DNA from: Deltaproteobacteria bacterium
GTDB taxonomy: Bacteria; Myxococcota; UBA727; VGSZ01
DNA length: 64,000 nt
Direction of reading: 5' to 3'
Assembly (NCBI GenBank): GCA_020850995.1
Contig: JADZDP010000177.1
Location: 4,712-68,711, forward strand
Shown here: positions 3,934 through 46,591 of the stretch, piece by piece
Position numbering within the stretch: position 1 is the first letter of the stretch
How the letters are laid out: each line of letters begins with the position of its first letter
The notes under the pieces: model-generated
What the model saw: the letters and a program-made list of their open reading frames with translations, nothing else
Told to the model about the DNA's origin: nothing
The model's database searches: none
Position numbers and translations under genes: made by a program

Positions 3934-6294
<2,361 letters not shown>

Positions 6295-6668: not shown

Positions 6669-8990
6669 ATGCCAAGCTCCGGCCGCGTGGGCCACAACGG
6701 CGCAGATCGAACCGAGGTCTTGGGCGGCGGCGACCCCAAGCGGCAGCCCCGGCTCGGCCGCTATCGCCTGGAGCGGCGCATCGGCCAGGGGGGCATGGCC
6801 GAGGTGTTCCTGGCGCGCGCCGAGGGCCCCGGCGGCTTCGAGAAGCAGGTCGTCATCAAGCGCATCCGACCGCAGCTCGTGAAGAACGAGCGCTTCGTCG
6901 AGATGTTCCTGCGCGAGGGTCGCCTGTTGGCGGGCCTCGATCACCCGAACATCGTGCGCGTCTTCGAGCTCGACGAGGCCGAGGGCGAGTACTTCCTGGC
7001 GCTCGAGTACTTGGACGGCCTGTCGCTGCGCGAGCTGATGGAGCGCTACTGGTTCGCCGGCAGGACCGTGCCGCTCGAGCCGGTGCTGCGCGTCTTCTCC
7101 GAGGCCGCGCTCGGCTTGGCGCACGCCCACGGCCTCAAGGAGCCGGGCGGCGCCTCGGCCAACCTGGTGCACAGAGACGTCAGCCCCGACAACCTCTTCG
7201 TCACCTCCACCTCGATCACCAAGGTGCTCGACTTCGGCATCGCCAAGCGCGAGGGCCTCGACGTGCTCACCCAGACCGGGGAGCTCAAGGGCAAGATCCA
7301 GTTCATGTCGCCCGAGGCGCTGCGCGGCGACACCTTGGATGCGCGCACCGACCTGTGGTCCTTCGGCATCACCATGTACTGGGCGTGCGCGGGGCGGCGG
7401 CCCTTCGACGGCGTCACCGATGTGCACACCATCAAGGGCATCCTCGAGGATCCGCCGCCGCCCTTGCGGCAGTTCAACAGCAAGCTGCCGGTGGCGGTGG
7501 AGGACATCGTCGCCTCGTGCCTCGAGAAGGACCGCAGCAAGCGCGTCAAGAGCGCGGCGCAGCTGCACGACACGCTGAGCGCGCTGCTCCTGGACCTGCC
7601 GCGCGGCGCGCCCACGCCCGCCGAGCTGGTCGCGGCGGCTCGTGCGCTGCCCTCGGTAGAGCACGAGATCACGCCGCGCACGGCCGCCGTGGCGCCCACG
7701 GTGCAGTGGCCCGATCGCACCATGCCGGTGGCGGTGGGCTCGTCGGGCGGTTCCTCGTCGATGATCGGGGCGCGCGGCAAGAACGCCCTGCCGCTGCCCG
7801 AGGGGACGGCGCTCGAGAGCGCCAAGGGCACCGAGGCCGCCACCAAGATCGGCCGCAAGTTCCAATCGAGCGTGCCGCCCACCGACAAGGTGCGGCCCAA
7901 GGTCGAGGCCGCCGAGGCGAGCGATGGGAGCGGCGAATTCGAGGGCGCCACCGACCTGGTGCCGGCCTCGTCCCTCCACACCACCGACGAGCACCGGCGC
8001 GTGATGGTGAGCACCGAGCACTCCGACGAGGCGCTCGGCACCACCGGCCCGCTGCGCTTGGAGGGCGACGGCGCCGTGCAGCAGGGCTTCCAGCCGCCCT
8101 CGGACCCCGTCATCGACGTCGAGCGCGAGCCGCGCTCCGGACCCAGGGCCGCGGCGCCCGCGGTGTCGCCGAGCGCGCCCACCATGCCGCACGTGGACCT
8201 CGCCGGCGTGGCGGCCGGCGCGCACGACATCCACGATCAGCACACCCAGGCGATGGTGGCGCTGCCGCAGTGGCCCGAGGCGGCCGAGGTCGAGATCCCC
8301 GCGGCGCGCCCGGCGCGCGTCGCGCCGGTGCTGGCCGGCATCGTCACGGCGCTGGCGATCGTGGTGGGCGCCTTGCACCTGAGCGGCATGCTCAATCGCG
8401 TCATCGATGGCCTGCTCGGGCGCGCGTACGCCGGCCTCGACGCCGGCACCGACCTGCCTGTCGACGCTGCGCACGAGGTCATCGCCGCGCCGGTCGACGC
8501 GGGCGCCGTCGTGGTGGACGGCGGCGGCGCGGCCCTCATCGACGCGGGCGCCGCGCCGGTCGTCGTCGACGCGGGCAGCGCCGCGCCCGCGGGGCGCACG
8601 CTCACCTTGATCGGCCCCGAGCACATCGAGTGGCTTGGGCCCACCGCCGAGCCCTTGGGCCTCGCGCGCGTGACGGTGCAGCTCGCGAGCGACGCCAAGG
8701 TCGTGTTTGCAAAAGACGCGCGCCGCGGCTGCACCACCCGCATCACCTTGGCGCCCGCGCAGCACACGGTCGACTACGCCCGCCTGCCCAAGGGGAAGAT
8801 CACGGTGCGCACGCGCCCGCCGGCCGAGGTGTTCCTCGGCGGCGAGCGGCTCGGGCGCACGCCGCTGCCGCCGCGAGAGCTGGTGGCCGGGCACTGCGAG
8901 CTACGCCTGGTGGCGCGCAAGAAGAGCAAGAAGGTGCCGGTCGAGGTGCGCGCCGGCAAGACCACCACGCTGACGCAAGACCTGCGCTGA
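6669..8990 (+). CDS. Ser/Thr protein kinase with C-terminal PEGA domain
   Basis: Kinase subdomains GQGGMAEVF, HRDVSPDNLFV, DFGIAK, SPE. The C-terminus has a PEGA-like module (RPPAEVFLGGERLGRTPL). The start was set to the ATG at 6669 (MPSSGR) to avoid overlapping the lon promoter; the table ORF begins at 6525. Confidence 0.75.
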   Translation: MPSSGRVGHNGADRTEVLGGGDPKRQPRLGRYRLERRIGQGGMAEVFLARAEGPGGFEKQVVIKRIRPQLVKNERFVEMFLREGRLLAGLDHPNIVRVFELDEAEGEYFLALEYLDGLSLRELMERYWFAGRTVPLEPVLRVFSEAALGLAHAHGLKEPGGASANLVHRDVSPDNLFVTSTSITKVLDFGIAKREGLDVLTQTGELKGKIQFMSPEALRGDTLDARTDLWSFGITMYWACAGRRPFDGVTDVHTIKGILEDPPPPLRQFNSKLPVAVEDIVASCLEKDRSKRVKSAAQLHDTLSALLLDLPRGAPTPAELVAAARALPSVEHEITPRTAAVAPTVQWPDRTMPVAVGSSGGSSSMIGARGKNALPLPEGTALESAKGTEAATKIGRKFQSSVPPTDKVRPKVEAAEASDGSGEFEGATDLVPASSLHTTDEHRRVMVSTEHSDEALGTTGPLRLEGDGAVQQGFQPPSDPVIDVEREPRSGPRAAAPAVSPSAPTMPHVDLAGVAAGAHDIHDQHTQAMVALPQWPEAAEVEIPAARPARVAPVLAGIVTALAIVVGALHLSGMLNRVIDGLLGRAYAGLDAGTDLPVDAAHEVIAAPVDAGAVVVDGGGAALIDAGAAPVVVDAGSAAPAGRTLTLIGPEHIEWLGPTAEPLGLARVTVQLASDAKVVFAKDARRGCTTRITLAPAQHTVDYARLPKGKITVRTRPPAEVFLGGERLGRTPLPPRELVAGHCELRLVARKKSKKVPVEVRAGKTTTLTQDLR

Positions 8991-9062: not shown

Positions 9063-11129
9063 ATGACGCGCACCGTGGCTCCCTTCACCCTCCGGTTCTT
9101 GCTCCTCGTGGCCGCGCTCGTCGCGGTGGCCGCCGCCTGCGGCGAGCCCTCGAAGGGTGACGCCAAGAAGGCGCCGAGCACGCCGGCCGTGGCGGCGCCG
9201 GGCCTCGACAAGGTCGCGCGCGTCGACTTCAACCGCCGCGCCGCCGAGCTGTTCTTGCCCTTGTTCTGGATCGAGGACAAGAACGGCAACAATGCCCTCG
9301 ACGTCGACGAGCTAGCGGTGTTGTGGGGCATCGGCCCGGCGCAGGCGGCGGACGCCTGGCTGAAGGATGGCGCCTTCACGAAGGCCTTCCTGGACGCCTA
9401 CGCGGCGATGCAGCAGCCGGCTGACACCGGGGCCGACGCCGCCGACCAGGCACGCCGCCAGGCCGTGCTCGACGAGCTCGGCCAGGGCCGCCCCACGCTC
9501 GTGCTCACCGACACCACGGGCTTCAGCGACAACGACAAGGCCATCGTCAAGTCCATCATCGAGGCGGCGCAGCTCATCGAGCAGATCTACGCCAAGCAGG
9601 TGGGCGTGGCAGAGCTGCGCACGACGGTGCCGAACGACGACAAGGCCTCGCAGATGTTGCTCCACCGCAACCAGACCACCGCCTGCGCGGCGCCGAAGAC
9701 CGAGAAGAACCCCGAGTGCTCGGCGGTGAAGTCCAAGCAGAAGCCGAGCTCGGGCCTGTACCCGGCCAAGCTGCAGGGGGCCGACGGCAAGTTCTGCGAG
9801 GTGCTCGAGAAGCGCAAAGACGCCGACAAGCTCTTGCACCAATTCGTCACGGTGACGGCGCGGGCGGGCGGCAAGAGCGAGGGCAACGCCGCCACCGACG
9901 AGCTCGAGCCCGTGCCCTACCACGTGGCCTACCAGGCCGAGATGGCGGCGGTGAGCGCCAAGCTCAAGGCCGCCGCCACCCACACGGGCGCCAGCGAAGC
10001 GCCCTTCGCCGCCTACCTGTTCGCCGCCGCCCAGGCCTTCCTCGACGACAAGTGGGGCCCGGCCGACGAGGCCTGGGCCAAGATGAACGCCGAGAACAGC
10101 AAGTGGTACCTGCGCATCGGCCCCGACGAGACCTACTTCGAGCCCTGCTCGCGCAAGGCGGGCTTCCACGTCTCGTTCGCGCGCATCAACCAAGACTCGC
10201 TCGCCTGGCAGAAGAAGCTCGAGCCCTTCAAGGCCGAGATGGAGGGCGCGCTCGCCGCGCTCGCCGGCCCGCCCTACAAGGCGCGCGAGGTCAGCTTCCA
10301 CCTGCCCGACTTCATCGACGTGGTGTTGAACGCCGGCGACTCGCGCGACGCGCTCGGCGGCACCATCGGCCAGTCGCTCCCCAACTGGGGCGCCGTGGCC
10401 AACGAGGGCCGCGGCCGCACGGTGGCCATGGTCAACCTCTACACCGACAAGGACAGCGAGGCGGCGTGGACCAGCCAGGCCTCTTCGCTGTTCTGCAAAG
10501 ACACCATGGCGGCCGCCAGCTTCGACCCGAAGCTCGCCGTCATGTCGACGGTGCTGCACGAGGCGGCGCACAACCTGGGCCCCGCCCACGAGTACAAGGT
10601 GGGCGGCAAGACCGACGATCAGATCTTCGGCGGGCCGATGGCCTCCATGCTCGAGGAGCTGAAGGCGCAGACCGCGGCGCTCTATTTCTCCGAGTGGCTC
10701 GTGAGAAAGGGCGCGGTGGACGCGCAGGCGGCGGCGGGCTCGCACCTGCGCGACGTCACCTGGGCCTTCGGCCACATCGCCGCCGGCATGTACAACGCCG
10801 AGGGCAAGATCAAGGCGTACAGCCAGCTCGCGGCCATCCAGATGGGCACGCTCTACAAGCAGGGCGCGCTCACCTGGAACCCCGAAGAGCTTGCCGCCAA
10901 CGGCAAGGACAAGGGCTGCGTGCGGGTCGACCTCGCCAAGTGGAAGCCCGCGGTGGACGAGCTCGCCAAGGTGGTGCTCGGCATCAAGGGGCGCGGCGAC
11001 AAGGCGCTGGCGGAGCAGACGCGCAAGGGCATCGTCGACGACGACCAGGAGTTCGCCAAGCTGCGCGAGCTCATCACCGAGCGCTGGCTGCGCACGCCCA
11101 AGGCCTCGTTCGTGTACGCCATTCGCTGA
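9063..11129 (+). CDS. Lipoprotein, putative gluzincin-type Zn metallopeptidase (HEXXH...E)
   Basis: Signal peptide plus lipobox (VAAAC). HEAAH motif (VLHEAAHNLG) with EEL 25 aa downstream. The family is not identified. Confidence 0.55.
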   Translation: MTRTVAPFTLRFLLLVAALVAVAAACGEPSKGDAKKAPSTPAVAAPGLDKVARVDFNRRAAELFLPLFWIEDKNGNNALDVDELAVLWGIGPAQAADAWLKDGAFTKAFLDAYAAMQQPADTGADAADQARRQAVLDELGQGRPTLVLTDTTGFSDNDKAIVKSIIEAAQLIEQIYAKQVGVAELRTTVPNDDKASQMLLHRNQTTACAAPKTEKNPECSAVKSKQKPSSGLYPAKLQGADGKFCEVLEKRKDADKLLHQFVTVTARAGGKSEGNAATDELEPVPYHVAYQAEMAAVSAKLKAAATHTGASEAPFAAYLFAAAQAFLDDKWGPADEAWAKMNAENSKWYLRIGPDETYFEPCSRKAGFHVSFARINQDSLAWQKKLEPFKAEMEGALAALAGPPYKAREVSFHLPDFIDVVLNAGDSRDALGGTIGQSLPNWGAVANEGRGRTVAMVNLYTDKDSEAAWTSQASSLFCKDTMAAASFDPKLAVMSTVLHEAAHNLGPAHEYKVGGKTDDQIFGGPMASMLEELKAQTAALYFSEWLVRKGAVDAQAAAGSHLRDVTWAFGHIAAGMYNAEGKIKAYSQLAAIQMGTLYKQGALTWNPEELAANGKDKGCVRVDLAKWKPAVDELAKVVLGIKGRGDKALAEQTRKGIVDDDQEFAKLRELITERWLRTPKASFVYAIR

Positions 11130-32000: not shown

Positions 32001-32867
32001 TCAGCTCGAGCAGTTGTTGGCCGCTGGGCTGCAAATGCCGACGTCGACCGGGAGCTGGAAGCTGCCGCCGGCGAAGCCACAACAGAGCTCGTCGCTGCCG
32101 CAGTCGTCGGTGCTCACGCACACCACCGCGTCGGTCTGACCGGCCTGCACGCAGCTGCCGGCGCTGACGCAGCTCGTCGCGTTGGTGGCGCCGTCGAGGC
32201 AGCACTCTTCGCTGAGCTCGCAGTCCTCGGCGCCGTCACAGACCACCGGCACGGCGAGGAGCGCGCCCGTGCAGCTGCCGCTGGACGCGATGCAGTTGCC
32301 GACGATGGCGAAGCTGACGTCGACGGTGACGCAGCAGACCGCGTTGGGGTCGCTGCAGGTGGTGGCGTCGCAGACCACGCCCGCCTCAGCGGAGCCCTCG
32401 TACTCTTGCCCCTGCACGAGCTCGCACGCGAGGCCGCTGCACACCTCGTTGCTCTCGCAGGGCACGATCACGGGGTCGCCGGCGGCGTTGCAGGTGCGCT
32501 CCGCCGACACGCTCTCGCAACCCGGCACGCACTCGCCCTCGCCCTCGCCCTCGCCGGGGTCGCCCTCGCCCTCGCCCTCGCCGGGGTCGCCCTCGCCCTC
32601 ACCCTCACCCTCACCTTCGCCCGCGGGCTCGCAGTCGCCGTCGTCGCACTCCTCGTCGTCGTCGCAGTCGCGGTCGCGCTCGCACTCCACGCACTCGCCG
32701 TCGACGCACAGGTTGTCGCCGAAGCAGTCGCTGGCTTGCGTGCAGTCGCCGGGCGCCAGGAAGAGGCCGCACGAGAGCGCCAAGGGTGCGAGCGCGAGCA
32801 GGAGCGTGAGCACGCCCACGCGGGCAGGCACGGGTGAGCGGACGGGGACGGGGTGCATCTTGGTCAT
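32001..32867 (-). CDS. Secreted Cys-rich lipoprotein with (GE)n linker (paralog of 54220..54915)
   Basis: Lipobox LALSC; GEGEGEGEGDPGEGEGEGDPGEGEGEGE; about 40 Cys in conserved spacing (ECVPGCE...ERTC...CDGAEDCE..EECC.DG...CGFAGG.F.LPVD.G.C.PAANNCS). Confidence 0.65.
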   Translation of the reverse strand: MTKMHPVPVRSPVPARVGVLTLLLALAPLALSCGLFLAPGDCTQASDCFGDNLCVDGECVECERDRDCDDDEECDDGDCEPAGEGEGEGEGEGDPGEGEGEGDPGEGEGEGECVPGCESVSAERTCNAAGDPVIVPCESNEVCSGLACELVQGQEYEGSAEAGVVCDATTCSDPNAVCCVTVDVSFAIVGNCIASSGSCTGALLAVPVVCDGAEDCELSEECCLDGATNATSCVSAGSCVQAGQTDAVVCVSTDDCGSDELCCGFAGGSFQLPVDVGICSPAANNCSS

Positions 32868-32897
32868 GGGACACCCTCGGAGGGACGGGGCGGAGTG

Positions 32898-32987
32898 GCG
32901 GAGAGAGAGGGATTCGAACCCTCGAGACGGTTTCCCGCCTACGCGATTTCCAGTCGCGTGCCTTCAGCCACTCGGCCATCTCTCCAC
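32898..32987 (-). tRNA. tRNA-Ser (anticodon GGA)
   Basis: Reverse complement reads GGAGAGATGGCCGAGTGGCTGAAGGCACGCGACTGGAAATCGCG...long variable arm...GGGTTCGAATCCCTCTCTCTCCGCCA, a class II cloverleaf. Coordinates approximate to 1 nt. Confidence 0.85.
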
Positions 32988-33102
32988 AGGCACCGCCGGG
33001 ACGCCGCTCATCTAGCGGATCTTTTTCCGCGCGTCGACGCCCACGGTTGAGGGCCCTGCGCCAGCGTTGACGACACCCGTGGTGCTGGCTACCTTGGTCA
33101 GC

Positions 33103-33192
33103 GGACAGCTGGCCGAGTGGCTGAAGGCACCTGACTCGAAATCAGGAGTACCCGCAAGGGTATCGGGGGTTCGAATCCCTCGCTGTCCGCCA
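33103..33192 (+). tRNA. tRNA-Ser (anticodon CGA)
   Basis: GGACAGCTGGCCGAGTGGCTGAAGGCACCTGACTCGAAATCAGG...GGGGGTTCGAATCCCTCGCTGTCCGCCA, divergent from the other tRNA-Ser. Coordinates approximate to 1 nt. Confidence 0.85.
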
Positions 33193-33263
33193 TCTTTCTC
33201 GACGACAAACCGCTTCGCAGCACACAAGGGCACACCCCTTGCTGCGCAGTGGTTTTCGCGCCC

Positions 33264-33338
33264 TCTGACTGGGTATCTGACAGGGAGCGGCTCGTGACGA
33301 TGACGTCTTGCCGCCGAGACAGGGTGTTTGACAGGGAA
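33264..33338. repeat. Direct-repeat motif copies (TCTGACTGGG, TCTGACAGGGAG, TTTGACAGGGAA) upstream of the NTase operon
   Basis: 33271-33286 gggtatctgacaggga; 33322-33338 gggtgtttgacagggaa. The same two motifs recur fused at 37712-37737. Confidence 0.5.
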
Positions 33339-33393
33339 AGGCCGCGAGATCGAGACTCTAGTTTTCTCGCTTCGGGAATGTTATGATCTAGAT

Positions 33394-33855
33394 ATGACGC
33401 TCGACAACGCAACCCTTCGCGACGCGTTGACCGCCCTCGGTGAGCTCCTCGTCGACCGCGGTGAGACCTACGACATCGTCGTCATCGGAGGCGGTGCATT
33501 GTTGCTCGGCGGCCACATCGAGCGGCCGACGAAGGATCTCGACGTCCTCGCGCGCATCGAGGGTGATCGCTGGCTCAGCGCGCAGCCGCTGCCCGATGCG
33601 CTGCGCGCCGCCGTCGCCGATGTCGGCGACGCGTTCGGGCTCGCGCGTGACTGGCTCAACTGCGGGCCGACGTCCCTGCTCGCGGGCGGGCTCCCCGACG
33701 GCTTCCCGGAACGGTTGAGCATCGAGCGTTTCGACGCGCTGACGCTCCTCACATCGGCGCGGTGGTGCCGCACGCACGATGCCTCCGAGGGCTTTCGCGG
33801 GCGGCAGCTTCTGCCGGTGCTGCAAGAGCTCGGTGTCGAGGTCGCCGATGTCTAG
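33394..33855 (+). CDS. Nucleotidyltransferase-fold (pol-beta superfamily) small protein
   Basis: hG[GS]-x13-DhD pattern (VVIGGGALLLGGHIERPTKDLDVLARI). Start taken as ATG 33394; the TTG start of the table ORF (33328) lies inside the repeat motif. Translationally coupled to the next gene. Confidence 0.5.
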   Translation: MTLDNATLRDALTALGELLVDRGETYDIVVIGGGALLLGGHIERPTKDLDVLARIEGDRWLSAQPLPDALRAAVADVGDAFGLARDWLNCGPTSLLAGGLPDGFPERLSIERFDALTLLTSARWCRTHDASEGFRGRQLLPVLQELGVEVADV

Positions 33856-34786
33856 CGCCGTCCAGAAGCAGGCCGCGGATCTCGCTTGGAGCCTCTGGAC
33901 GGAGCTCGGCATCGCCGGCGTCGTGCGGGAGCATGCCCACGTGGCAATCGATCCCGAGCCGCTCTTCGTCGCCACGCCGCTCCTTGCAGCGCACGACGCG
34001 CGCCTGCTCGAACAGGTGTCACGTTGGAGCGTGCTCTTCGGCGACTGGCTCGCGATGAGCCGAGTGCAGGCGCTGTGCAAGGCGGCGGAACCCACCGTGC
34101 ATGACGCGTTCGTGTCCTTCGCCGCGTCGATCCCCGGTGGGGGGCGGTGGACGTGTGAGGCCACGAAGATGTCGAAGCAGAAGAACCCGCCGCAGCTGAC
34201 GTCGATGGAGCTGCCGCTCTTGCGACCGGCGCTGGTCCGGCTGCGCCTGCGCGCGATATGCGGCGTCGGTGCACGCGCCGACGTCGTCGCAGAGCTCATC
34301 GGGCACGCGCGCGTATGGTTGCGTGCGTCCGACTTCGAGCATCTCGGCTACACGAAGAGAAACGTCGCTCGCTTGCTGTCCGAGCTCTGCGACGCCGGGT
34401 TTCTGCGGTCGCTGAAGGAGAAGAACGCGATCGCCTATCGCCTCGCCGACGGCGGGCGGTGGTCTGACCTCGTCGGCGCCACGGCCGTCACGTGGCCGGC
34501 ATGGCCCGCAATCTTCGACTTCGCCCGGTTGGCGCTGCGGCTCGATGGGGAACGTGCGAAGAGCGAAGGCGTGCGCCGGGTCGCGGCGGCCCAGACAGCG
34601 CACGCGCTCGAGCCGCTTTGCGATCGCTTGGACCTCGCGCAACCGCCGACCGCGACGGCGAATCCCCAGGCGTGGGCCGCAACGACCGCGTTCGTGGAGC
34701 GCGAGGTGGCAGCCTTCGCGGGCGCGACGTCGCCGTCGATGTCGCGTGCCGGCGGAGCTCGCGGCCGCGTCAGTGCCGCGCGTTGA
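33848..34786 (+). CDS. Hypothetical protein with predicted winged-helix segment, partner of the NTase-fold gene
   Basis: ATG 33848 overlaps the NTase stop. TKRNVARLLSELCDAGFLRSLKEKNAIAYRLAD resembles a wHTH. One Rx5H (RASDFEH) occurrence is noted but not diagnostic. Confidence 0.45.
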   Translation: MSSAVQKQAADLAWSLWTELGIAGVVREHAHVAIDPEPLFVATPLLAAHDARLLEQVSRWSVLFGDWLAMSRVQALCKAAEPTVHDAFVSFAASIPGGGRWTCEATKMSKQKNPPQLTSMELPLLRPALVRLRLRAICGVGARADVVAELIGHARVWLRASDFEHLGYTKRNVARLLSELCDAGFLRSLKEKNAIAYRLADGGRWSDLVGATAVTWPAWPAIFDFARLALRLDGERAKSEGVRRVAAAQTAHALEPLCDRLDLAQPPTATANPQAWAATTAFVEREVAAFAGATSPSMSRAGGARGRVSAAR

Positions 34787-34831
34787 TCGCGTCGCGCCGC
34801 GTCGCCGTGTCGACGAAACGGCGCTCACTCG

Positions 34832-35935
34832 TCAGCGTCCACATACCGGGCACGCAAGCCGCCCTTGCGCCGATGGCGCGCATCGTTCGCAAAGCAGGTG
34901 GATCTTGTCGTCGCATACCGCGGGGCGAGCGGCAGGGAGCAGGCAGCCGTCGCACGCAGGCACGTCGAGCGTGCGCGCGGCCGAGGGGAGGTGCAGGCTC
35001 AGCACGCGCTCCTCCTTCCGTCGACGCACGCGCACGTCGACGACGATCGTGGGCACTTCGACGACGGCGGCGAAGACGATCGTCGCGCGCGCACGCAACG
35101 TGTAGCGGGCGCGCAACTCCGCCAACTTCGCCGCGCGCTCATTCTCGAGATGTTCGACGCGGGCTTTGACCGCCGCCGGATCACGTTGCTTGCGACCGGT
35201 ACGCGTTTCGTAGATGAGCTCGTGAAAGTACGCATCGACGCGCTCGTGGTCGCGCCGGTGCCGGCGGGCGACGTTGTCCTGATGTGCGCCGGCGAGCGCG
35301 GCCAGCCGGGCGCGCAGCCGGGGCGGGAGGACCTCCGCGCGCACCGCAGGGAGGGCGCGGTGCGCTCCACGAAGCGCGCTCGTGGTGTCGAGCGCGAGCG
35401 CCGCGACCAGGGCCGAGTCCGGCGCGGCGCCGTCCGATGCGCACAACGCCAGCACCTCGAACGCCTCGTCGCGGTCGTCCGCCTCGACGACGAGGCGCGT
35501 GCCGACGAACGCGTACGCCTCGTTGCGAGCGCGTACCGCGCCGACGTCGACAACCGCGTTGCGCAGCGCGAAGCGGGCCGCGAGCGCCTCGGCCTGGCTC
35601 GCGCGCGGTGCCGCCAGCTCTGCGTCGGCGACGACGTACCCACGCAGCGACGAGCGCTCATCGACCAACCGATCGAGGAGCCCGGTCCCGAGCCCGCACG
35701 CAACGGCCCCTGTCCGTGCGGCTGACGCGACCTGCACCTCCTCCTGGAGCGCGAGCCGGGTGGCCAACGCCGACGGGAGGATCGCGAGGGCCTCCTCCTC
35801 GCCGTCGGCTGCGTTGGCGACCTCGACGAGCGCGCCGTCGCGCGCGAGGGCGTCCGCGCAGAAGCGCACGGGGCTCGGCAGTGTCGCCGGCAGTGTCGCC
35901 GGCAGTGTCGTCGGCAGCGCGGGCAGCGAGGTCAT
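34832..35935 (-). CDS. Hypothetical protein with C-terminal Cys-rich Zn-ribbon-like tail, co-operonic with SNF2 helicase
   Basis: C-terminus VPACDGCLLPAARPAVCDDKIHLLCERCAPSAQGRLACPVCGR (8 Cys + 1 His). The 4-nt overlap (35932-35935) with the upstream helicase gene implies coupling. Confidence 0.5.
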   Translation of the reverse strand: MTSLPALPTTLPATLPATLPSPVRFCADALARDGALVEVANAADGEEEALAILPSALATRLALQEEVQVASAARTGAVACGLGTGLLDRLVDERSSLRGYVVADAELAAPRASQAEALAARFALRNAVVDVGAVRARNEAYAFVGTRLVVEADDRDEAFEVLALCASDGAAPDSALVAALALDTTSALRGAHRALPAVRAEVLPPRLRARLAALAGAHQDNVARRHRRDHERVDAYFHELIYETRTGRKQRDPAAVKARVEHLENERAAKLAELRARYTLRARATIVFAAVVEVPTIVVDVRVRRRKEERVLSLHLPSAARTLDVPACDGCLLPAARPAVCDDKIHLLCERCAPSAQGRLACPVCGR

Positions 35936-37626
35936 GCGGCGAAGTCCTCGCCGAACACCGCGTCGTCGAGCTTCTTGGAGTTCTCGTACGTTCCGCGCGC
36001 CGCGCCGATCTCCGCCGCGAGCGCGTCGAAGCCACGGTCGATCTCCGCCTCGTCCTTGCTGGCGGCGTAGAGCGCGAGCACGCGCTCCTCGAGGTCGCGG
36101 TCATCGGCGAGGTTGCCGAGCACCATGTCCATCTCGCCGACGACGAGCTCGAACAGATGGAGCCGCCGATCGAGCACGTCGAGCAGCTTCTCCTCCGCCG
36201 ACCCCTTCATCGCGAGGTTGTAGACGTGCACGTCGCGCGTCTGGCCCATGCGGTGGACGCGGCCGATGCGCTGCTCGAGCAGCATCGGGTTCCACGGCAC
36301 GTCGAAGCTGACGACGACGTTGCAGTGCTGCAGGTTGGTCCCCTCGGCGCCGACGTCGGTGGACACGAGGGCGCAGCGCTCCTCGCGGAACCGCTCGACG
36401 GCGAGCGCCTTCTCGTCGGCCGACTGCGCGCCAGAGACCACGACGTGCCGCACGCCAGCGTCGTTGAACGCGCGCTCGATCGCCGCCAGCGTCGCGCGGA
36501 AGCGCGTGAACACCAGCGCGTGCCCGCCGTGCGCCCGCACCAATGCGACCAGCTGCTCGAGCTTCTTCGTCTGCGTCGCGGCCCGTGCCGCCTCGCGGGC
36601 AGCGGCGAAGGCGGGACCGTCGAGCGCGGTCGCGCGGTCAAGCGTGGCGCGCACGGCGTCAGGGCTCGAGCCCGCCTCGAGGAGCAGCGTGGTGCCGAGG
36701 AGCGTTCGCCGCGCGGCCTGCGCGTCGGCGCGCACGAGATCGACGACCCGATCGTAGAGCGCGCGCTCCGCGGCCAGCGGCTCGACGACGGCGGTGGTCA
36801 CGAAGCGCGGCGGCAGCTTCAAGCCGCACGCCGCGCGCGTGTTGCGCACCATGACGTCCCCAAGCAACTGTCGCAGCCGCTCGCGGTTCTTCGGCGAAGT
36901 CGGATCGGACTTGTCGACGAACTGCGCCTTGAACGCCGACGCCGTCGTGAGCTGGCCCGGCCGCAGCAACGTGACGAGCGCGTACAGCTCCTCGAGGCTC
37001 GTCTCGATCGGCGTGGCGGTGAGCAGCAGCAGGAAGCGGCTCTTCAGGCCGTCGACGAGCTTGTAGCCGAGGGTAGACTGCTTCTTGATGTGGTGGGCCT
37101 CGTCGACGACGACGAGATCCCACGAAGCGCTCTGGAGCAGTGGCGCGACTTTGGCGCCGCGCGCCTTGGCGAGCGACGCGAGCACGACACCGTCCCTCGC
37201 GAGGAACGCCGCCGGGTCTTGTTCGAAGGCGTGGTCATCGAGCGTCGCGGCCTGCACTCCGGCCTTCGCGAGGAGCTCGCCCCGCCACTGCGGAACGAGC
37301 GCCGGCGGTGCGATCACGAGGGTGCGGCGCGCCATGCCGCGCAGTTGGTACTCGCGCAGCACGAGGATCGCCTCGACGGTCTTGCCGAGCCCGACCTCGT
37401 CGGCGAGGAGCGCACGGCCGCGGAGCACGCGGAGCACGCGCCGGACGGTGTCGTGCTGGTAGGTGTGCGCGTCGACGCCGGCGAGCGACTGTGGCGAGAG
37501 CAGGTCGGTGAACGTCGCGGCCGACGCGAGGGTGTGCGCGCGCACCGCGAGCGAGAGGTCGACGAGCGTCATGGGCGCGCGCAGCAGCGCTGTGACGTCG
37601 CCCGTCGTCACGTCGGCGATCTCCAT
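35932..37626 (-). CDS. Compact SNF2-family (HepA/RapA-like) helicase/ATPase
   Basis: Motif I DEVGLGKT; motif II DLVVVDEAHHIK; motif III LLLTATP; C-terminal helicase motifs ...TDVGAEGTNLQ... and RIGRVHRMGQ; 564 aa. Confidence 0.8.
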   Translation of the reverse strand: MEIADVTTGDVTALLRAPMTLVDLSLAVRAHTLASAATFTDLLSPQSLAGVDAHTYQHDTVRRVLRVLRGRALLADEVGLGKTVEAILVLREYQLRGMARRTLVIAPPALVPQWRGELLAKAGVQAATLDDHAFEQDPAAFLARDGVVLASLAKARGAKVAPLLQSASWDLVVVDEAHHIKKQSTLGYKLVDGLKSRFLLLLTATPIETSLEELYALVTLLRPGQLTTASAFKAQFVDKSDPTSPKNRERLRQLLGDVMVRNTRAACGLKLPPRFVTTAVVEPLAAERALYDRVVDLVRADAQAARRTLLGTTLLLEAGSSPDAVRATLDRATALDGPAFAAAREAARAATQTKKLEQLVALVRAHGGHALVFTRFRATLAAIERAFNDAGVRHVVVSGAQSADEKALAVERFREERCALVSTDVGAEGTNLQHCNVVVSFDVPWNPMLLEQRIGRVHRMGQTRDVHVYNLAMKGSAEEKLLDVLDRRLHLFELVVGEMDMVLGNLADDRDLEERVLALYAASKDEAEIDRGFDALAAEIGAARGTYENSKKLDDAVFGEDFAA

Positions 37627-37711
37627 GGGCGGCGGCTCGACGCCAGCACCTCATCGCGAACGCGCGTCGCCATCGCCGCCGAGTAGCTGAAACGGCGGGC
37701 CGTTGCGATCC

Positions 37712-37737
37712 GGTTTGACAGGGAATCTGACAGGGTA
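37712..37737. repeat. Second copy of the TTTGACAGGGAA + TCTGACAGGG motif pair (same orientation), ~85 nt upstream of the helicase start
   Basis: ggtttgacagggaatctgacagggta; compare 33264-33338. Confidence 0.5.
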
Positions 37738-38009
37738 CGCCGTGCGAACGGTGCCCCTCGGTGCGCACACCGCCGCTCGCGCCGGCGGAGCCGGACGCGG
37801 CCGGCGCCGGGGCGTCGTACGTCTCGAACGTGCGCGTCCTGCAACGCGACGATGGACCAGCCCAGTAGCTCGGCTTCTCAGCTCGATTCACCCACCTATG
37901 GCCCTGGTGGCCGTGGCCGGTCTACGTTCACGACGCGGCGAGCCCCGCGGGGCGCCGATTCGCGCGCCGCTCGTCCAGAGAGCACACGCCCCGCGCAGAG
38001 GACCGGCTC

Positions 38010-39191
38010 ATGAAGAAGGCCACAGCCAGACTACGAGCGACCCGGTCGATCACGCTCTCTATCGCCAACTTCGCCCAGATCCGCAGTGTCGACCTCGCGC
38101 TTGGCGACCTGACCGTCCTTGTGGGTCCGCAAGGCGCAGGCAAGAGCCTCGCTCTACAGTGGCTCAAGGCGGGGATGGACGGGAAGCAGGTCATCGATGC
38201 GCTGCGCGCCGCCGGTCACCCCACCGAAAGATCCGACGTCGTCGTTGACCTCATCTTCGGCACCGGCATGGCACCGGCATGGCGGGCCGACTCGACCGTC
38301 ACTCTCGACGGAAAGACCATCACTCCGAAGGTACTGAGTCGTGTTGGAAACGGAGAGGAGCGCCTCTTCTTCATTCCTGCGCACCGCTCGATGCTGATTA
38401 GCGACGGCTGGGCGGCGCCCTTCCAAAAGCTCGGCTCCGACACCCCGGCAGTGGCGCGCCTCTTTAGCCAGAACCTCTTTGATCGCTTCAGCGGCAAGGA
38501 CGCGGGCACGCTCTTCCCCGTGGAGAAGCGCCTCAAGGCGGAGATCCGAAAACAGATCGACGACGCTGTCTTTCACGGTGGCAAGGTCGGAATCGCAGAG
38601 GATGCTCAGCATGCCCGTCGCCTCCGCCTCGCGCACGGGGACATGCACCTGCCGTTCATGACGTGGACTGCGGGCCAGCGCGAATTCACCCCACTCCTCC
38701 TCGCCCTCTATCACCTCCTCCCTTCGACCAAGCTGCGCAAGCGCAAAGGGACGGACTGGGTCGTTCTCGAGGAGCCGGAGATGGGACTTCACCCGCAAGC
38801 GATCACAGCTGTGATGCTGCTCGTCCTCGATCTCCTCTGGCGCGGCTACCGGGTCGTGATGTCGACTCACTCCCCGCACGTGCTGACCATGCTGTGGATG
38901 ATGCAGCGCCTCAAGGAGAACGCCGCTCGGTGGCAGCTCGTCTGCGAGGCCTTTGACGTGAAGGTACCGGCGCAGATGCGCAAGGTCGCGGAGGCCGCGC
39001 TCCAAAAAGACTACCGCGCCCACTTTCTGACATTCGGCAACGATGGGCATGTGACGTCGACGGAGATCACCGGTCTCGACCCATCTTCGGAGAACGAGGG
39101 CGAGGCCGAATGGGGCGGTCTCACGGGCTACTCGTCGCGTTTCGGTGACGTCGTGCGCAAGGCAGTGAACGAGGCCGAGAGTGGGCGCTAG
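38010..39191 (+). CDS. ABC-type (AAA_21/OLD-like) ATPase
   Basis: Walker A GPQGAGKS; Walker B/D-loop WVVLEEPEMGLHPQ; H-loop STHSPHVL; 393 aa. Codon usage and GC look visibly lower than the surrounding DNA. Confidence 0.7.
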   Translation: MKKATARLRATRSITLSIANFAQIRSVDLALGDLTVLVGPQGAGKSLALQWLKAGMDGKQVIDALRAAGHPTERSDVVVDLIFGTGMAPAWRADSTVTLDGKTITPKVLSRVGNGEERLFFIPAHRSMLISDGWAAPFQKLGSDTPAVARLFSQNLFDRFSGKDAGTLFPVEKRLKAEIRKQIDDAVFHGGKVGIAEDAQHARRLRLAHGDMHLPFMTWTAGQREFTPLLLALYHLLPSTKLRKRKGTDWVVLEEPEMGLHPQAITAVMLLVLDLLWRGYRVVMSTHSPHVLTMLWMMQRLKENAARWQLVCEAFDVKVPAQMRKVAEAALQKDYRAHFLTFGNDGHVTSTEITGLDPSSENEGEAEWGGLTGYSSRFGDVVRKAVNEAESGR

Positions 39192-39660
39192 CAAGGGCAG
39201 GAAGGCGACGCCCGTAAGGGCCGCGCTGGTCGACAACAGCCACCTGCTCAACCTCATTCAGGAAGGCCTCGGCGCGCTCAAGAGCTCGGACAAGGCCCTC
39301 ATCGCTGCCGAGCTCAAGTCCGCCTTCCTCGACAGCATCGACATCGACACAGGGCTCAGGGCGGGACACGATCAGGAGAATCGCTGGGACTACTTGCTAG
39401 GTCACGGGGCGAGAGAGGTTGTCGTTGCGCTCGAGACGCACGCAGCTCGCCAAGGAGAGATTCGCACGATCATCAGGAAGCGCCGCGCGGCGCTTGAACA
39501 GCTCAGGCCCCACCTGCGCGCCGGCTCCAAGATCACCGCGTGGTTCTGGGTTGCAACCGGCTCCGTCCGCTTTGCCGACACAGAGAAGGCCCCCCGCATA
39601 CTCGATCAGAATGGGATCACGTTCGTCGATAGGTGCCTCAAGGGGGCGCACCTCCGATGA
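39181..39660 (+). CDS. Small hypothetical protein (159 aa) coupled to the ABC ATPase; possible effector
   Basis: Overlaps the ATPase 3' end by 11 nt. No motif recognised with confidence (acidic-residue cluster ...VVVALETH...). Confidence 0.4.
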   Translation: MGASKGRKATPVRAALVDNSHLLNLIQEGLGALKSSDKALIAAELKSAFLDSIDIDTGLRAGHDQENRWDYLLGHGAREVVVALETHAARQGEIRTIIRKRRAALEQLRPHLRAGSKITAWFWVATGSVRFADTEKAPRILDQNGITFVDRCLKGAHLR

Positions 39661-39836
39661 GCGCCTCACCGCGGAGATCCGTTGCAGCCGTGGTCGACAC
39701 CTGTGGTCCTCGCCACAATCCTTGCGTCGCGTCCTTGCCACGCACCACGGACCACGCAGCCGCGGTGCTCCATGGGCTCCTGGCATGTCCCTGTGCCGGG
39801 CTCGATCACTGCGGTCGACCTTCGCAGTAGCGCCCG

Positions 39837-40706
39837 CTACCGAATGGTAAACGCCAGCAAGCCCGGCAAGCTGGTGGTGAACACGCCGGTCGCGTCGTCG
39901 AGCTGATGGAACCACACCTGCAGCCGCAGGGAGCAGGACGCGGCGCCGTCCTCGTCGTGAAACACGCCGGCGGGTTGGCAGTAGCTCACGAAGGGCATCT
40001 GGCGCGTCAGCTCGGTGCACACCTCGTTGGCGGCCTCGATGGCGTCGTCGCAGCGGGCGCTGTCCATGGCCTCGAGCGCGCGCGCGTCGTGGTGCACCAT
40101 CAGGTGGCTGCGCGGTCCCTCCCAGGCGTCGGCGTCGATGTCGGCGATGTTGGCGCGCGCGAACACCTCTTCCACAACGTGCTCGCAGCCCTGGAACTCC
40201 TCTTGGTTGCAGTTGGCGTCGCAGCCGTCCCACGACTCGTGGTTGCCGTCGTCGCACACCTCGCCGTCGTCGAGCGCGCCGTTGCCGCAGCTTGGCGCCG
40301 GGCCCACCAGCGGCGCGCCCGCGAAGTCGAGCACGTGCACGTCGTGGAGGGGGCCGGTGTCGCCGGGGCGCCAGACCTCGAAGCGCACGGCGCAGCGCGG
40401 CGTCACGTGCGCGTAGAAGAACGCGGTGGTGTAGCCGCACGAGCTCACCGTGCCGTCTTGGTAGAGCTCGCCGCACACCGCTGCGAGCTCTTGGTCCACG
40501 GCGTCGCAGCTGGCGGCGCTGACCTCGCCCTCGAGCGTGGCGTCGACCAGCTGGTGCACGCGGTACTCGAGCTCGCCGCTGCCGGGGCGCTCCGGCTCGG
40601 TGATGGCGCGCTTGACGACGCTGGCGAGCTCCCTGGTCTGTTCGGCCGGCGATTGGCCGCAGGCGGCGAGGGCACACACGAGGAGGGTGGGGGTGAGCTT
40701 GCGCAT
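39837..40706 (-). CDS. Lipoprotein with one Myxococcus cysteine-rich repeat
   Basis: Lipobox LVCALAAC; CGNGALDDGEVCDDGNHESWDGCDANC. Confidence 0.6.
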   Translation of the reverse strand: MRKLTPTLLVCALAACGQSPAEQTRELASVVKRAITEPERPGSGELEYRVHQLVDATLEGEVSAASCDAVDQELAAVCGELYQDGTVSSCGYTTAFFYAHVTPRCAVRFEVWRPGDTGPLHDVHVLDFAGAPLVGPAPSCGNGALDDGEVCDDGNHESWDGCDANCNQEEFQGCEHVVEEVFARANIADIDADAWEGPRSHLMVHHDARALEAMDSARCDDAIEAANEVCTELTRQMPFVSYCQPAGVFHDEDGAASCSLRLQVWFHQLDDATGVFTTSLPGLLAFTIR

Positions 40707-40838: not shown

Positions 40839-41876
40839 TCAGGGCGAGCGCCGCAAGAGCACGCCGCCGGTGAGCGGCAGCGTGTCGATGGAGCCGCCCA
40901 CCGCCCAGTAGGAGCCGTCCTCGCCGATGAAGCAGCCGTGCAGCGTGACGAACATGGGGAAGCCGAGCTCCTCGCCCACGAAGGCGCCTTGCTGGCGCGT
41001 GAGCACCATGCCGCTTTGGCCCACCACCAAGCCCTCGTCGCCGCGCAGGTGGACGCCGAAGAGCGAAGGCAAGGACGCACCGGCCGGCGTCACCTCTTGC
41101 CAGGGCGCGGCGTCGTCGCGGCCGCGGGCGAGGATGCGCCCTTGGTACGGACCGCCCACGGCCACGGCGCCCTCGTCGTCCAAGGCCACGGTGAACAGCG
41201 AGCTCTCCAAGTCGAAGGCCACCTCGGTGAGCGCGGCGCCGTCCCAGTGAAAGGTGCGGCCCTTGGTGCCGACGAGCCACACGTCGTCGGGGCCGCGGGC
41301 CGCCGCCTTCCACATCACGTAGTCGACGGTGGCCGTGGGCAGCGCCACCGCCTCCATGGGCCCGCCGCCTTGCGAGCGCCACACGAAGCCACCCGTGAGG
41401 CCGCCGATGCGCCCGCCGGCGGCCCACACGTCGTCACCCGTGGCGAGCACGCCAAAGACGATGAGCGCCTCGTTGTCTTGCCCCGTCACCGGCGTGGTCA
41501 GCTCTTCCACCACGGCCGCGCCGCTCGAGATGTCGATGCGCGCCACGCGTCCGAAGCTGCCCGACACGTACGCCACGTCGGCGCTCACGGGATCGACCCA
41601 CCACAGGTCGCCCTGCAGGTTCGCGTCGTAGGCCACGAACCCCCCGTCGTCGCTCGGGTCGTGATCGACGAGCAAGGTGGCGAAGGCCGGGCCCTCCACG
41701 CCGTCGGGGTCGCCGCCCACGGTCCACACCGCGCCGTCGCGCTCGCGGATGGAGAGCAGCGCGCCCGGCTCGGTCTCGCGCGCCATGCTCCACGTCGGCG
41801 CCGGCACGGGCACGCACTGCTCGCACGCGAGGCAGCACATCGGCAACGCCAGGAAGGCGAGCCCGCGTCCTCTCAC
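40839..41876 (-). CDS. Lipoprotein, beta-propeller-like repeats
   Basis: Lipobox-like PMCCLAC; repeated G..DDVW..G motifs. Confidence 0.45.
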   Translation of the reverse strand: MRGRGLAFLALPMCCLACEQCVPVPAPTWSMARETEPGALLSIRERDGAVWTVGGDPDGVEGPAFATLLVDHDPSDDGGFVAYDANLQGDLWWVDPVSADVAYVSGSFGRVARIDISSGAAVVEELTTPVTGQDNEALIVFGVLATGDDVWAAGGRIGGLTGGFVWRSQGGGPMEAVALPTATVDYVMWKAAARGPDDVWLVGTKGRTFHWDGAALTEVAFDLESSLFTVALDDEGAVAVGGPYQGRILARGRDDAAPWQEVTPAGASLPSLFGVHLRGDEGLVVGQSGMVLTRQQGAFVGEELGFPMFVTLHGCFIGEDGSYWAVGGSIDTLPLTGGVLLRRSP

Positions 41877-45493: not shown

Positions 45494-46591
45494 GTGCGCC
45501 TCCTCCCGCTCGCTGCGCTCTCGTGCTGCGCCCTCGTGCTCTCCTGCGAGAGCGTGGTGGGGGTCGGCGACGCCTGCGACGACGATGGCGACTGCCGCAC
45601 CATCTGCGTCGACGGCTACTGCACCATCATCGAGGGCGAGGGGGAAGGCGAGGGCGAGGGGGAAGGAGAAGGCGACGGGGAAGGAGAAGGCGACGGGGAA
45701 GGTGAGGGCGAGGGGGAAGGCGAAGGTGAAGGTGAAGGTGAGGGCGAGGGGGAAGGAGAAGGCGAGGGGGAAGGCGAGGGCGAGCCCTTCGTGGCACGCA
45801 GTTGCCAAGAGCTGCTCGCGTACGACGCAGGCACGGTGAACGGCAGCTACCCCTTCGACTTCGACGGCGACGGCGCCTACGACGACCTCGACGGCGACGG
45901 CCTCGACGTGAACGACGTGGTCCCCTGCGAGATGGCGCGCGCCGGCGGCGGCTGGACCAACGTGGTGCGCCTGAGCGACATCGCCGCCTGCCCTGGCGAC
46001 TGGCAGCTCATCGTCGCCACCAACTTCTCGGGGTGCCAGCGCAACCAGGGCGGCGCGGGGACGCGCTCGGCGACCTTCAGCCCGCGCGTGCCCTGGACCG
46101 ACGTGCGCGGCGGCGCCACCGCCATCGTCTACGGCGACGGCGACGCCTTCAACGACGAGCAGGGGCGCTCCATCGACTCGTACTACGTCGATGGCGTCAG
46201 CGTGACCACCGCAGCGCCACGGCAACACCTGTTCACCTTGGTGGCCGGTCACCCCGAAGACGCGCCGTCTTCCGACTGCCCGTGCAACGGCGGTCAGCCG
46301 CCGCCCGCCTTCGTCGAGGACAACTTCGCGTGCGACGAGCCTGGGCCCGACTGTCGACCCGGCGGCGGGCGCGCGTGGGGACCAGCAGATCCGCTCTGGG
46401 ACGCCACCTGGGACGGCGTCGACACCATGTGCCTGCCCGCCGACGCGGCCAAGATCGACGGGGGCCTCTTCGTGCGCACCGGCGTCAACGCGACGCCCGC
46501 GGCCACCGCCATCGAGGTGCGCATCAGCCACGACCAGGGCTCGAGCGACGAGGACCTGGCCATCACGGCGCTGGAGCTGTGGGTGCGCTGA
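45494..46591 (+). CDS. Secreted lipoprotein with (GE)n linker; C-terminal domain with GGGWT motif
   Basis: GTG start; lipobox ALVLSC; 60-residue (E/D)G array; GGGWTNVVRL is reminiscent of fibrinogen-related domains (weak). Confidence 0.55.
   Translation: MRLLPLAALSCCALVLSCESVVGVGDACDDDGDCRTICVDGYCTIIEGEGEGEGEGEGEGDGEGEGDGEGEGEGEGEGEGEGEGEGEGEGEGEGEGEPFVARSCQELLAYDAGTVNGSYPFDFDGDGAYDDLDGDGLDVNDVVPCEMARAGGGWTNVVRLSDIAACPGDWQLIVATNFSGCQRNQGGAGTRSATFSPRVPWTDVRGGATAIVYGDGDAFNDEQGRSIDSYYVDGVSVTTAAPRQHLFTLVAGHPEDAPSSDCPCNGGQPPPAFVEDNFACDEPGPDCRPGGGRAWGPADPLWDATWDGVDTMCLPADAAKIDGGLFVRTGVNATPAATAIEVRISHDQGSSDEDLAITALELWVR

Follow-up and report, generated by a model that had tools for sequence, protein, structure and literature searches.

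Short direct repeats upstream of two neighbouring operons can be read in quite different ways, as sites where a shared regulator acts or as traces of a mobile element. This question is raised by a 64,000-nt stretch of DNA (hereafter, the window) from an uncultured myxobacterial lineage, in which a preliminary description had pointed out copies of a motif before a nucleotidyltransferase (NTase) operon and before an SNF2 helicase operon. It had proposed either operators for a common regulator, or att-like direct repeats around an inserted four-gene cassette, and had remarked that the TTGACA within the motif resembles a -35 hexamer. What are these repeats, and what do they reveal about the history of the genes that they surround?

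The motif is real and is not explained by chance. The 8-mer TGACAGGG occurs four times in the 64 kb, always at the two places first described, and the 12-mer TYTGACAGGGWA, allowing at most one mismatch, has five matches in the window against 0.30 expected, all at these sites, a count reached by 0 of 100 shuffles. A motif scan resolves the repeats into three tandem 12-bp dimers with the core GAC[A/T]GGG, every unit lying on the + strand, as the preliminary description had correctly stated for its copies. Site A comprises TCTGACTGGGTA (33264-33275) and TCTGACAGGGAG (33276-33287); site B, the other pair of the left arm, comprises CGAGACAGGGTG (33315-33326) and TTTGACAGGGAA (33327-33338); and site C, the P-arm-like pair that closes the cassette on its right side, comprises a further TTTGACAGGGAA (37714-37725) and TCTGACAGGGTA (37726-37737). 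The copies originally placed at 33271-33286 and 33322-33338, and the fused copy at 37712-37737, are all present, but two degenerate units had been overlooked. The units in the window follow the consensus YTGACAGGGWA with a strict 12-bp period; two of them contain an exact TTGACA, 13 nt (GTTTGACAGGGAA) are identical between sites B and C, and the dimer pattern GACWGGG-N5-GACAGGG has three matches in the window where 0.00 are expected.

The repeats occupy two intergenic regions, each upstream of operons, in the island. To the left stands a tRNA-Ser(CGA) gene found by ARAGORN (33103..33192, + strand), the proposed integration target on the attL core side. Between it and the first repeat pair lies a long hairpin (33200..33260, + strand; folding energy -31.1 kcal/mol, z -6.1), and sites A and B are found 72-146 nt beyond the tRNA 3' end. 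They are followed on the + strand by a DUF6036/AbiEii-like NTase of 153 aa, assigned by Pfam (33394..33855), which has lost about 40 aa internally compared with relatives of about 193 aa (proteins from L075 and L076), and by a 312-aa partner with a wHTH-like segment (33848..34786). The family of the latter is uncharacterised, with proteins of about 300 aa that come after a DUF6036/AbiEii-like NTase in all contexts examined but one. Convergent with this operon, on the - strand, are an SNF2-family helicase of 564 aa, DrmD/BrxH/ZorD-like by homology (35932..37626), and its 367-aa partner (34832..35935), which has a Cys-rich end and weak similarity to the DrmD C-terminus. Helicase and partner are kept together in two contexts of SNF2 homologues (L010 and L011); an unrelated MNT/HepT pair lies close by in L010. 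Site C does lie upstream of the helicase pair, 88 bp before the SNF2 ATG, but is antisense to that operon. It is in the sense orientation relative to the candidate defence pair PDC-M56 A (an AAA ATPase) and B on the + strand (38010..39660; PADLOC 1.8e-117 and 3.4e-21; GC 0.64), 273 bp upstream of the operon start at 38010.

Comparison with related genomes demonstrates that this island was inserted. Three syntenic myxobacterial relatives (L263, L265, and L266, with flanking protein identities of 86%, 71%, and 69%) have the same gene order, and in all three the site 3' of tRNA-Ser(CGA) is empty; the P0250 context is not syntenic with the window. BLAST homology to L263 and L265 ends at 33195-33197 and native homology returns at 39841, so that 33198-39840 of the window constitutes an insertion. 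Within it, BLAST and a four-way alignment (A4) recover a patch of native intergenic DNA at about 37752-37825. Positions 37770-37812 match L263 and L265 independently (84-85% identity, E of about 1e-6 each), and the patch is also aligned with L266 in A4; its counterpart in the relatives lies about 210 nt 3' of tRNA-Ser(CGA). Because this native DNA is to the right of site C, the four-gene cassette sits between the tRNA and native sequence, and because the patch begins only 15-33 nt from site C, the edges of the cassette coincide with the repeats. PDC-M56 represents an insertion of its own, located between this patch and the Cys-rich gene. If the repeats had arisen as a crossover duplication, a single copy might have marked the empty site, but no convincing copy was found there in the relatives. 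Near the equivalent position L265 has TTGGCAGGG, which we treat as a chance occurrence since it is missing from L263 and L266 and does not align in register. Gene order is constant across 20 same-species contigs (99% identical), obtained from many samples, and none is without the cassette; the repeats have no SNPs among them, at a divergence too low to be informative. One same-species contig (L183) has different sequence downstream of tRNA-Ser(GGA).

This second serine tRNA gene, the neighbour of tRNA-Ser(CGA), provides the most direct comparison. In two of the three relatives it carries an integrase element, which is complete on its contig in L263 (GCA_964580865.1) and represented by the attL end only in L266 (GCA_023248695.1). 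The L263 element spans 5.5 kb, encodes a tyrosine integrase, and is bounded by a 64-nt attL/attR core direct repeat with 98% identity. The pattern YTGACA-N6-YTGACA has only two matches in it, one per arm, against 0.00 expected, both on the strand of the tRNA, and L266 has the same attL pair; in the window, an exact match is found at site C only. The window and both elements share one order of features, consisting of the tRNA 3' end, a hairpin, 5-7 nt, and a tandem YTGAC pair. The outer stem of the hairpin (CGACGAC.AA/GTTTTCG) is that of the L263/L266 attL arm, and alignment A2 puts site A in a position equivalent to the P'-arm pair of these elements, although similarity between the window and L263 attL arms is below BLAST detection. 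These elements occupy the same neighbourhood as the island, with the same arrangement next to a sister tRNA, and L263 also has a second pair in its far arm on the same strand. They differ from the window in that they encode an integrase together with an HTH_3 gene, carry other cargo, and have (C/G)CAA rather than GGG(A/T)A as the tail of the repeat unit; L263 additionally has Xis-like and resolvase genes and the intact 64-nt core repeat. Its integrase shows about 32% identity, over 92-98% of the length, to temperate-phage tyrosine integrases, mostly of mycobacteriophage, and relatives in a search of viral contigs reached about 30% identity only. Such integrases work with arm-type sites; the putative arm-binding domain at the N-terminus of the L263 protein gave a sub-threshold AP2-like match only (E 0.077).

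By analogy with these elements, we consider it probable that the TGACAGGG repeats are arm-type (accessory) att sites left by an element, now decayed, that had integrated at tRNA-Ser(CGA). A small integrative element would once have inserted at the 3' end of this gene by means of a two-headed tyrosine integrase, with its N-terminal domain on the arm sites and its other domains on the core (crossover) site in the tRNA, a dual contact that would fold the DNA and so build the recombination complex; a summary of what arm-type sites do within integrase complexes is available (PMC2951348). In this scheme, the arm nearest the tRNA (attL, P' side) would consist of sites A and B, and the far arm (attR, P side) of site C. 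Later decay would have removed the integrase gene as well as the core repeat of attR, together with some 170-200 nt of neighbouring native DNA, so that what is left between orphan arm sites is a pair of defence-like modules, NTase-wHTH on one side and SNF2 with its partner on the other. We infer both the binding of the repeats by an integrase and the order in which the element decayed.

Among the observations that favour this interpretation, the repeats are short copies of a non-core consensus that cluster within about 200 bp of both ends of the element, and the same site architecture recurs in demonstrably integrated elements, in both arms of L263 and at attL of L266. The core itself is another matter, as the 3' part of the tRNA has no second copy in the window, whereas it does in L263. 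A search to the right of site C for a decayed copy of the tRNA 3' end found none (score 13, against 14.9 +/- 2.5 for random sequence). A 14-nt D-arm-like match at 37678-37691 was set aside as chance level (E of about 7). For this reason the att-site reading rests on analogy, and the part of the preliminary description that saw att-like repeats around an inserted cassette is upheld in a modified form: the cassette is inserted and its sister element has the same type of pair at both ends, but the repeats would be arm-type sites and not the place of crossover. Neither the L263 nor the L266 integrase had a tblastn match in the window, and tblastn with all proteins of the L263 island detected no gene remnant there. 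With neither integrase nor attR core, the island is a fossil rather than something that can excise as a unit. An intact element with TGACAGGG arms was not found among 185,579 representative genomes, in which YTGACWGGGNNTYTGACAGGG matched 94 stretches spread across all phyla; of the 80 that were listed, none is from the source genome. The two matches from myxobacteria or delta-proteobacteria, in Sorangium (L143) and an uncultured delta proteobacterium (L132), lie in what appear to be coding repeats, and a scan of viral contigs for the dimer gave 63 matches, about the number expected by chance.

We think it unlikely that the repeats are operators through which one regulator, be it the 312-aa wHTH protein of the island or a host factor such as a direct-repeat-binding response regulator, controls the NTase and SNF2 (or PDC-M56) operons together. 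Some winged-helix regulators typically have tandem direct repeats as their sites, and a regulatory role would suit both the intergenic position of the repeats upstream of operons and the wHTH-like segment of the island protein. Arm sites can, moreover, overlap promoters, as they do in KplE1 (PMC2951348). Against this stands a different promoter element, a pair of CGAGA-N9-TCTCG palindromes, that about 50 orthologous NTase-wHTH loci share and that the window also has, on the + strand, as IR1 (CGAGACTCTAGTTTTCTCG, 33351-33369) and IR2 (CGGGAATGTTATGATCTAG, 33373-33391). In a comparison of the upstream regions of 54 orthologous loci, with palindrome statistics based on 48, such palindromes were present at 24 of the 48 against 7.6 expected, centred at -32 and -12. 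A -10-like TATGAT (33382-33387) lies 6 nt before the NTase ATG, which predicts a leaderless NTase mRNA. Judged from sequence, the twin palindromes at 33351-33391 are the likely true operator/promoter of NTase-wHTH operons. The TGACAGGG dimers, by contrast, are absent from the roughly 50 orthologous loci, and among the 54 upstream regions the only ones with a tandem GACWGGG dimer are those of the window and of contig L183, which is from the same organism. The loci of the SNF2 pair in Sorangium and other Myxococcales do not have the motif, and L010 and L011 contain neither a TGACAGGG-type motif nor an NTase-wHTH pair of the window's family. Furthermore, the motif has opposite orientations relative to the NTase and SNF2 operons, and the genome and viral-contig scans yielded matches at chance level only. 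The proposal of a shared operator for the island wHTH protein is thus not borne out. A PhoB-box-like reading of the minus strand (CTGTCA) was also dropped, the period being 12 bp and not 11 and conservation being absent.

Alternatively, the repeats might have bound the recombination directionality factor (Xis-like) of the lost element and not its integrase, which we regard as quite improbable. In att arms, tandem direct repeats serve as binding sites of Xis-type proteins, and the L263 element encodes a 67-aa protein with a weak HTH_17 match; however, Xis sites are usually limited to one arm, and both L263 and the window have pairs in both. The data at hand are compatible with either protein. 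It is highly improbable that the 12-bp repeats are crossover sites of the four-gene cassette (attL/attR or cassette recombination) or -35 elements: direct repeats stand at both cassette edges, with 13 nt identical in B and C, and TTGACA is exact in two units, but the L263 core is a 64-nt tRNA repeat from which the YTGACA pairs are separate, neither a cassette-free contig or strain (among 20 contigs) nor a convincing single copy at the relatives' empty sites was found, the site C copy points away from the SNF2 operon, promoter scans of 33000-33500 and 37550-38100 revealed no promoter-like site, and the -35 idea is unsupported because neither TTGACA has, 16-18 nt away, a -10 partner carrying A in position 2 and T in position 6.

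Arm-type sites of a decayed element thus remain the preferred explanation, a well-known kind of feature that would most likely be an ordinary genomic scar and not a shared gene switch. A conspicuous repeat is thereby explained with no need for a new regulator, and boundaries and a history are fixed for a 6.6-kb defence island comprising NTase-wHTH, a split SNF2 helicase, and PDC-M56. In this uncultured myxobacterial lineage, the divergent tRNA-Ser(CGA)/tRNA-Ser(GGA) pair emerges as a hotspot at which integration recurs. The analysis also yields, in the twin palindromes at a leaderless promoter, a likely operator for the widespread, uncharacterised NTase-wHTH module. It is very doubtful that the orphan arm pairs are still in use, bound by an integrase encoded elsewhere or co-opted as regulatory sites of the defence operons. 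A source of such an integrase may be an element at the sister tRNA-Ser(GGA), the place where related genomes have an integrase element and where the sequence in contig L183 differs. Were this true, an outside integrase could mobilise or rearrange an integrase-less defence cassette, and the twin-tRNA locus would be a modular, integrase-serviced exchange site for defence genes.

Known systems place these features in context. In AbiE-type toxin-antitoxin systems, the wHTH antitoxin AbiEi binds repeats in its own promoter, and the window similarly has an NTase and wHTH pair with a repeat-bearing promoter. The twin palindromes at 33351-33391 resemble such an operator, and an AbiE-type role fits them and not the TGACAGGG repeats; unlike AbiEi/AbiEii, the NTase comes first in the gene order and its partner is of a different family. 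Cis-mobilizable elements (CIMEs) are decayed integrated elements that have lost the integrase but kept attL and attR (PMC5704250). The island resembles them as an integrase-less remnant at a tRNA gene with att-derived flanks, in a hotspot that accumulates other elements. The missing integrase fits this class and the missing attR core does not: a CIME has both att cores, whereas the window has no detectable attR core, which makes mobilisation in trans unlikely. Arm-type sites are familiar from phage lambda (P1/P2 and P'1-P'3) and from mycobacteriophage L5, in which they form the pairs P1-P2, P4-P5, and P6-P7. In comparison with lambda-type systems, the window is missing both the integrase and the attR core, YTGACAGGGWA and its 12-bp period are lineage-specific, and the arm role is putative. 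The likenesses are those of architecture: short repeats, about 10-12 bp long and distinct from the core, adjacent tandem copies, sites in both arms, and a distance of about 50-150 bp from a tRNA-borne core, as well as, in the related L263 element, an integrase resembling those of temperate phages, mostly mycobacteriophages.

We identified the DNA inserted beside tRNA-Ser(CGA) (33103-33192, plus strand) by comparison with syntenic loci, which were reached through orthologues of a right-flank gene (40839-41876). Three relatives were compared: L263 (GCA_964580865.1), L265 (GCA_016177705.1) and L266 (GCA_023248695.1), with 86%, 71% and 69% identity in the flanking protein. In all three, a divergent tRNA-Ser pair lies beside a Cys-rich gene (a myxobacterial gene at 39837-40706 in the window, minus strand), and PHA/VTT/CstA genes stand on the other side in L263 and L265; the L266 contig stops inside an integrase element before them. 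Little or nothing occupies the site 3' of tRNA-Ser(CGA) in any of the three: it spans 291 nt in L263 and holds one 146-aa gene in L265. Since BLAST homology of the window to these relatives ends at 33197 and restarts at 39841, 33198-39840 is inserted DNA. Within it, a native patch (37770-37812) matches L263 and L265 at 84-85% identity (E ~1e-6 each), widens to ~37752-37825 in a four-way alignment, and lies ~210 nt 3' of the tRNA in the relatives. The patch and the homology breaks place a four-gene cassette between the tRNA and the patch.

The gene map, based on GC at third codon positions (GC3), Pfam, PADLOC, NCBIfam and gene calls on same-species contigs, resolves this cassette into two convergent operons: a DUF6036/AbiEii-like NTase (33394-33855) with a 312-aa wHTH-like protein (33848-34786) on the plus strand, and a SNF2 helicase (35932-37626) with its 367-aa partner (34832-35935) on the minus strand. 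Gene order is identical in 20 same-species contigs from many samples, which are 99% identical and vary too little to reveal constraint on the repeats. The PDC-M56 A and B genes (38010-39660, plus strand) have a lower GC (0.64) and form a candidate defence pair, an AAA_21/AAA_15 ATPase and a 159-aa protein, between the patch and the Cys-rich gene; they appear to have entered separately, as a second insertion on the right of the patch, and no repeats can be recognised at the edges of this insertion. Cys-rich genes at 32510-32750 and 45614-45811, on either side of the tRNA locus, are paralogues encoding myxobacterial cysteine-rich acidic-repeat proteins; the long coding arrays of (G/E) repeats in them lie ~13 kb apart as imperfect inverted repeats.

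The edges of the cassette coincide with the repeats, as one of two explanations in the preliminary description had it for an inserted cassette of these four genes, and the motif itself is real. Where two single copies and one fused copy had been described, direct reading of both regions shows three tandem dimers of 12-bp units, all on the plus strand: site A (33264-33287, TCTGACTGGGTA|TCTGACAGGGAG) and site B (33315-33338, CGAGACAGGGTG|TTTGACAGGGAA) at the left edge, and site C (37714-37737, TTTGACAGGGAA|TCTGACAGGGTA) at the right. Site C does stand upstream of the SNF2 operon, but antisense to it. All four occurrences of TGACAGGG in the 64-kb window fall within these sites; the 12-mer with at most one mismatch has five matches against 0.30 expected, and GACWGGG-N5-GACAGGG three against 0.00. 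Elsewhere the dimer occurs at chance level only, both in viral contigs and in a scan of 185,579 species (one genome each), and two myxobacterial/delta-proteobacterial matches among the loci listed, none of which comes from the source genome, sit in apparent coding repeats. A 14-nt match to the tRNA-Ser D-arm (GCCGAGTAGCTGAA, one mismatch) at 37678-37691, 23 nt left of site C, is probably due to chance, given a BLAST E of ~7.

A tyrosine-integrase element is present in L263 and L266 at the sister gene, tRNA-Ser(GGA) (32896-32985 in the window, minus strand). Two direct copies of the tRNA 3' part, 64 nt each (5290-5353 and 10825-10888, 98% identical), bound the L263 element. The element codes for a 431-aa integrase, an HTH_3 protein, a resolvase and a small protein that matches HTH_17 weakly. 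Its left end runs from the tRNA through a hairpin and CTGACACAACGT|TTGACAGCAACC to the integrase stop codon, and at its right end TTGACACACAAA|CTGACAGCAATC is followed after ~100 nt by the core repeat. YTGACA-N6-YTGACA has exactly two matches in L263, one per element end and on one strand (0.00 expected), one in L266, in the attL arm, and one in the window, at site C. In alignment, site A coincides with the L263/L266 pair, 5-7 nt past the hairpin, and the window and L263/L266 hairpins (-31.1 and -23.8 kcal/mol) have in common the outer stem CGACGAC.AA/GTTTTCG. The L263 integrase is ~32% identical over nearly its full length to temperate-phage tyrosine integrases, mostly of mycobacteriophages, and its putative arm-binding domain is supported by a sub-threshold AP2-like match only. 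Integrases of this class work with arm-type sites that often stand side by side in pairs. The principle of such sites in integrase complexes has been summarised (PMC2951348).

The sister tRNA-Ser(GGA) is a second hotspot of integration, with elements at 5262-10888 in L263 and 7871-9980 in L266; several same-species contigs break exactly at its 3' end (32896), and L183 (1-114) differs in sequence beyond it. The 356-aa gene of the L263 element contains, at 7684-7820, a 22-nt unit (TGGCAACCGGCTGCCGTGTTTC) in triplicate, with a 45-nt tandem repeat holding two of the copies; these may represent iterons or some other array bound by protein.

Because the pairs and the hairpin follow a like order in L263 and L266, and the integrase there belongs to the arm-site class, we consider it probable that the TGACAGGG pairs served as arm-type sites for a related element whose target was tRNA-Ser(CGA). 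Against this, the arm consensus of the window is unlike that of L263, the similarity of the window to the L263 attL arm is below BLAST detection, and the genomes of the 185,579 species yielded no intact element carrying GGG-type arms. That the repeats were bound by an Xis-like protein rather than by the integrase seems improbable.

A common operator for both operons, bound by the wHTH protein, is not supported. Proteins of ~300 aa make up the uncharacterised family of the 312-aa protein, and their genes lie directly 3' of a DUF6036/AbiEii-like NTase in most contexts examined (L075, L076 and 67 of 83 loci screened by tblastn). When the 110 nt preceding the NTase start codon were aligned for 54 loci, a common design emerged: a tandem pair of palindromes, mostly CGAGA-N9-TCTCG, one around a TTGAC-like -35 and the next around a TAnnnT -10, with the start codon 6-8 nt past the -10, which predicts a leaderless mRNA. 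Of 48 distinct loci, 24 have perfect palindromes with 5-nt arms (7.6 expected), and the centres cluster at -32 and -12; in the window the twin design follows site B, at 33351-33391. These palindromes are conserved, whereas tandem GACWGGG units occur, among the upstream regions compared, only in the window and in L183 from the same organism; the family's operator is therefore something other than the repeats, and the twin palindromes are probably the autoregulatory operator of the NTase-wHTH module. The SNF2 pair is likewise kept in Sorangium and another Myxococcales genome (L010, L011), where the motif is absent, as is an NTase-wHTH pair of the window's family; the MNT/HepT pair near it in L010 is unrelated. 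Neither operon thus includes the TGACAGGG repeats among its conserved parts. A secondary regulatory use of the sites is a remote possibility. A role of their TTGACA as a -35 hexamer is not supported, since scans of both repeat regions found no sigma-70-like promoter using it.

The NTase-wHTH pair is a widespread uncharacterised two-gene module (L075, L076, L184-L262) whose wHTH-like partner has no Pfam family; members of ~473 aa could be fusions with the NTase. The window NTase has 153 aa against ~193 aa in relatives; an in-frame internal deletion has removed ~40 residues between ...LT(L/V) and SARWC..., which may have left the putative toxin inactive. The SNF2 helicase has 564 aa and its partner, weakly similar to the DrmD C-terminus, a Cys-rich end; many SNF2 homologues are 720-830 aa long and might be fused forms. 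Strains vary at 36 positions of the SNF2 gene (1,695 nt), yet a reported identity of 100% between the window protein and that of the other strains (P0001) means that these changes must be mostly synonymous, and purifying selection is likely.

If the pairs are arm-type sites, the element is now a fossil: the window holds no integrase, no remnant of any L263-island gene and neither an intact nor a decayed duplicate of the tRNA 3' part, and ~170-200 nt of the native DNA that separates tRNA and patch in relatives is missing. As the simplest history we infer that an element would have integrated at tRNA-Ser(CGA), that the integrase next to its left arm would have been lost or replaced, and that a deletion would then have taken the remainder of the right arm along with the attR core and adjacent native DNA. 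The proposal of attL/attR-like repeats was thus correct in outline, since the repeats flank an inserted cassette and are read as att-associated, but wrong in detail, because they are taken as arm rather than crossover sites and the element as fossilised. The window element resembles a cis-mobilizable element (CIME; PMC5704250), but a CIME keeps attR; having not retained it, the window element lacks the defining feature. Arm-type att sites of integrated elements are already known as a kind, of which the window's pairs would be a further example.
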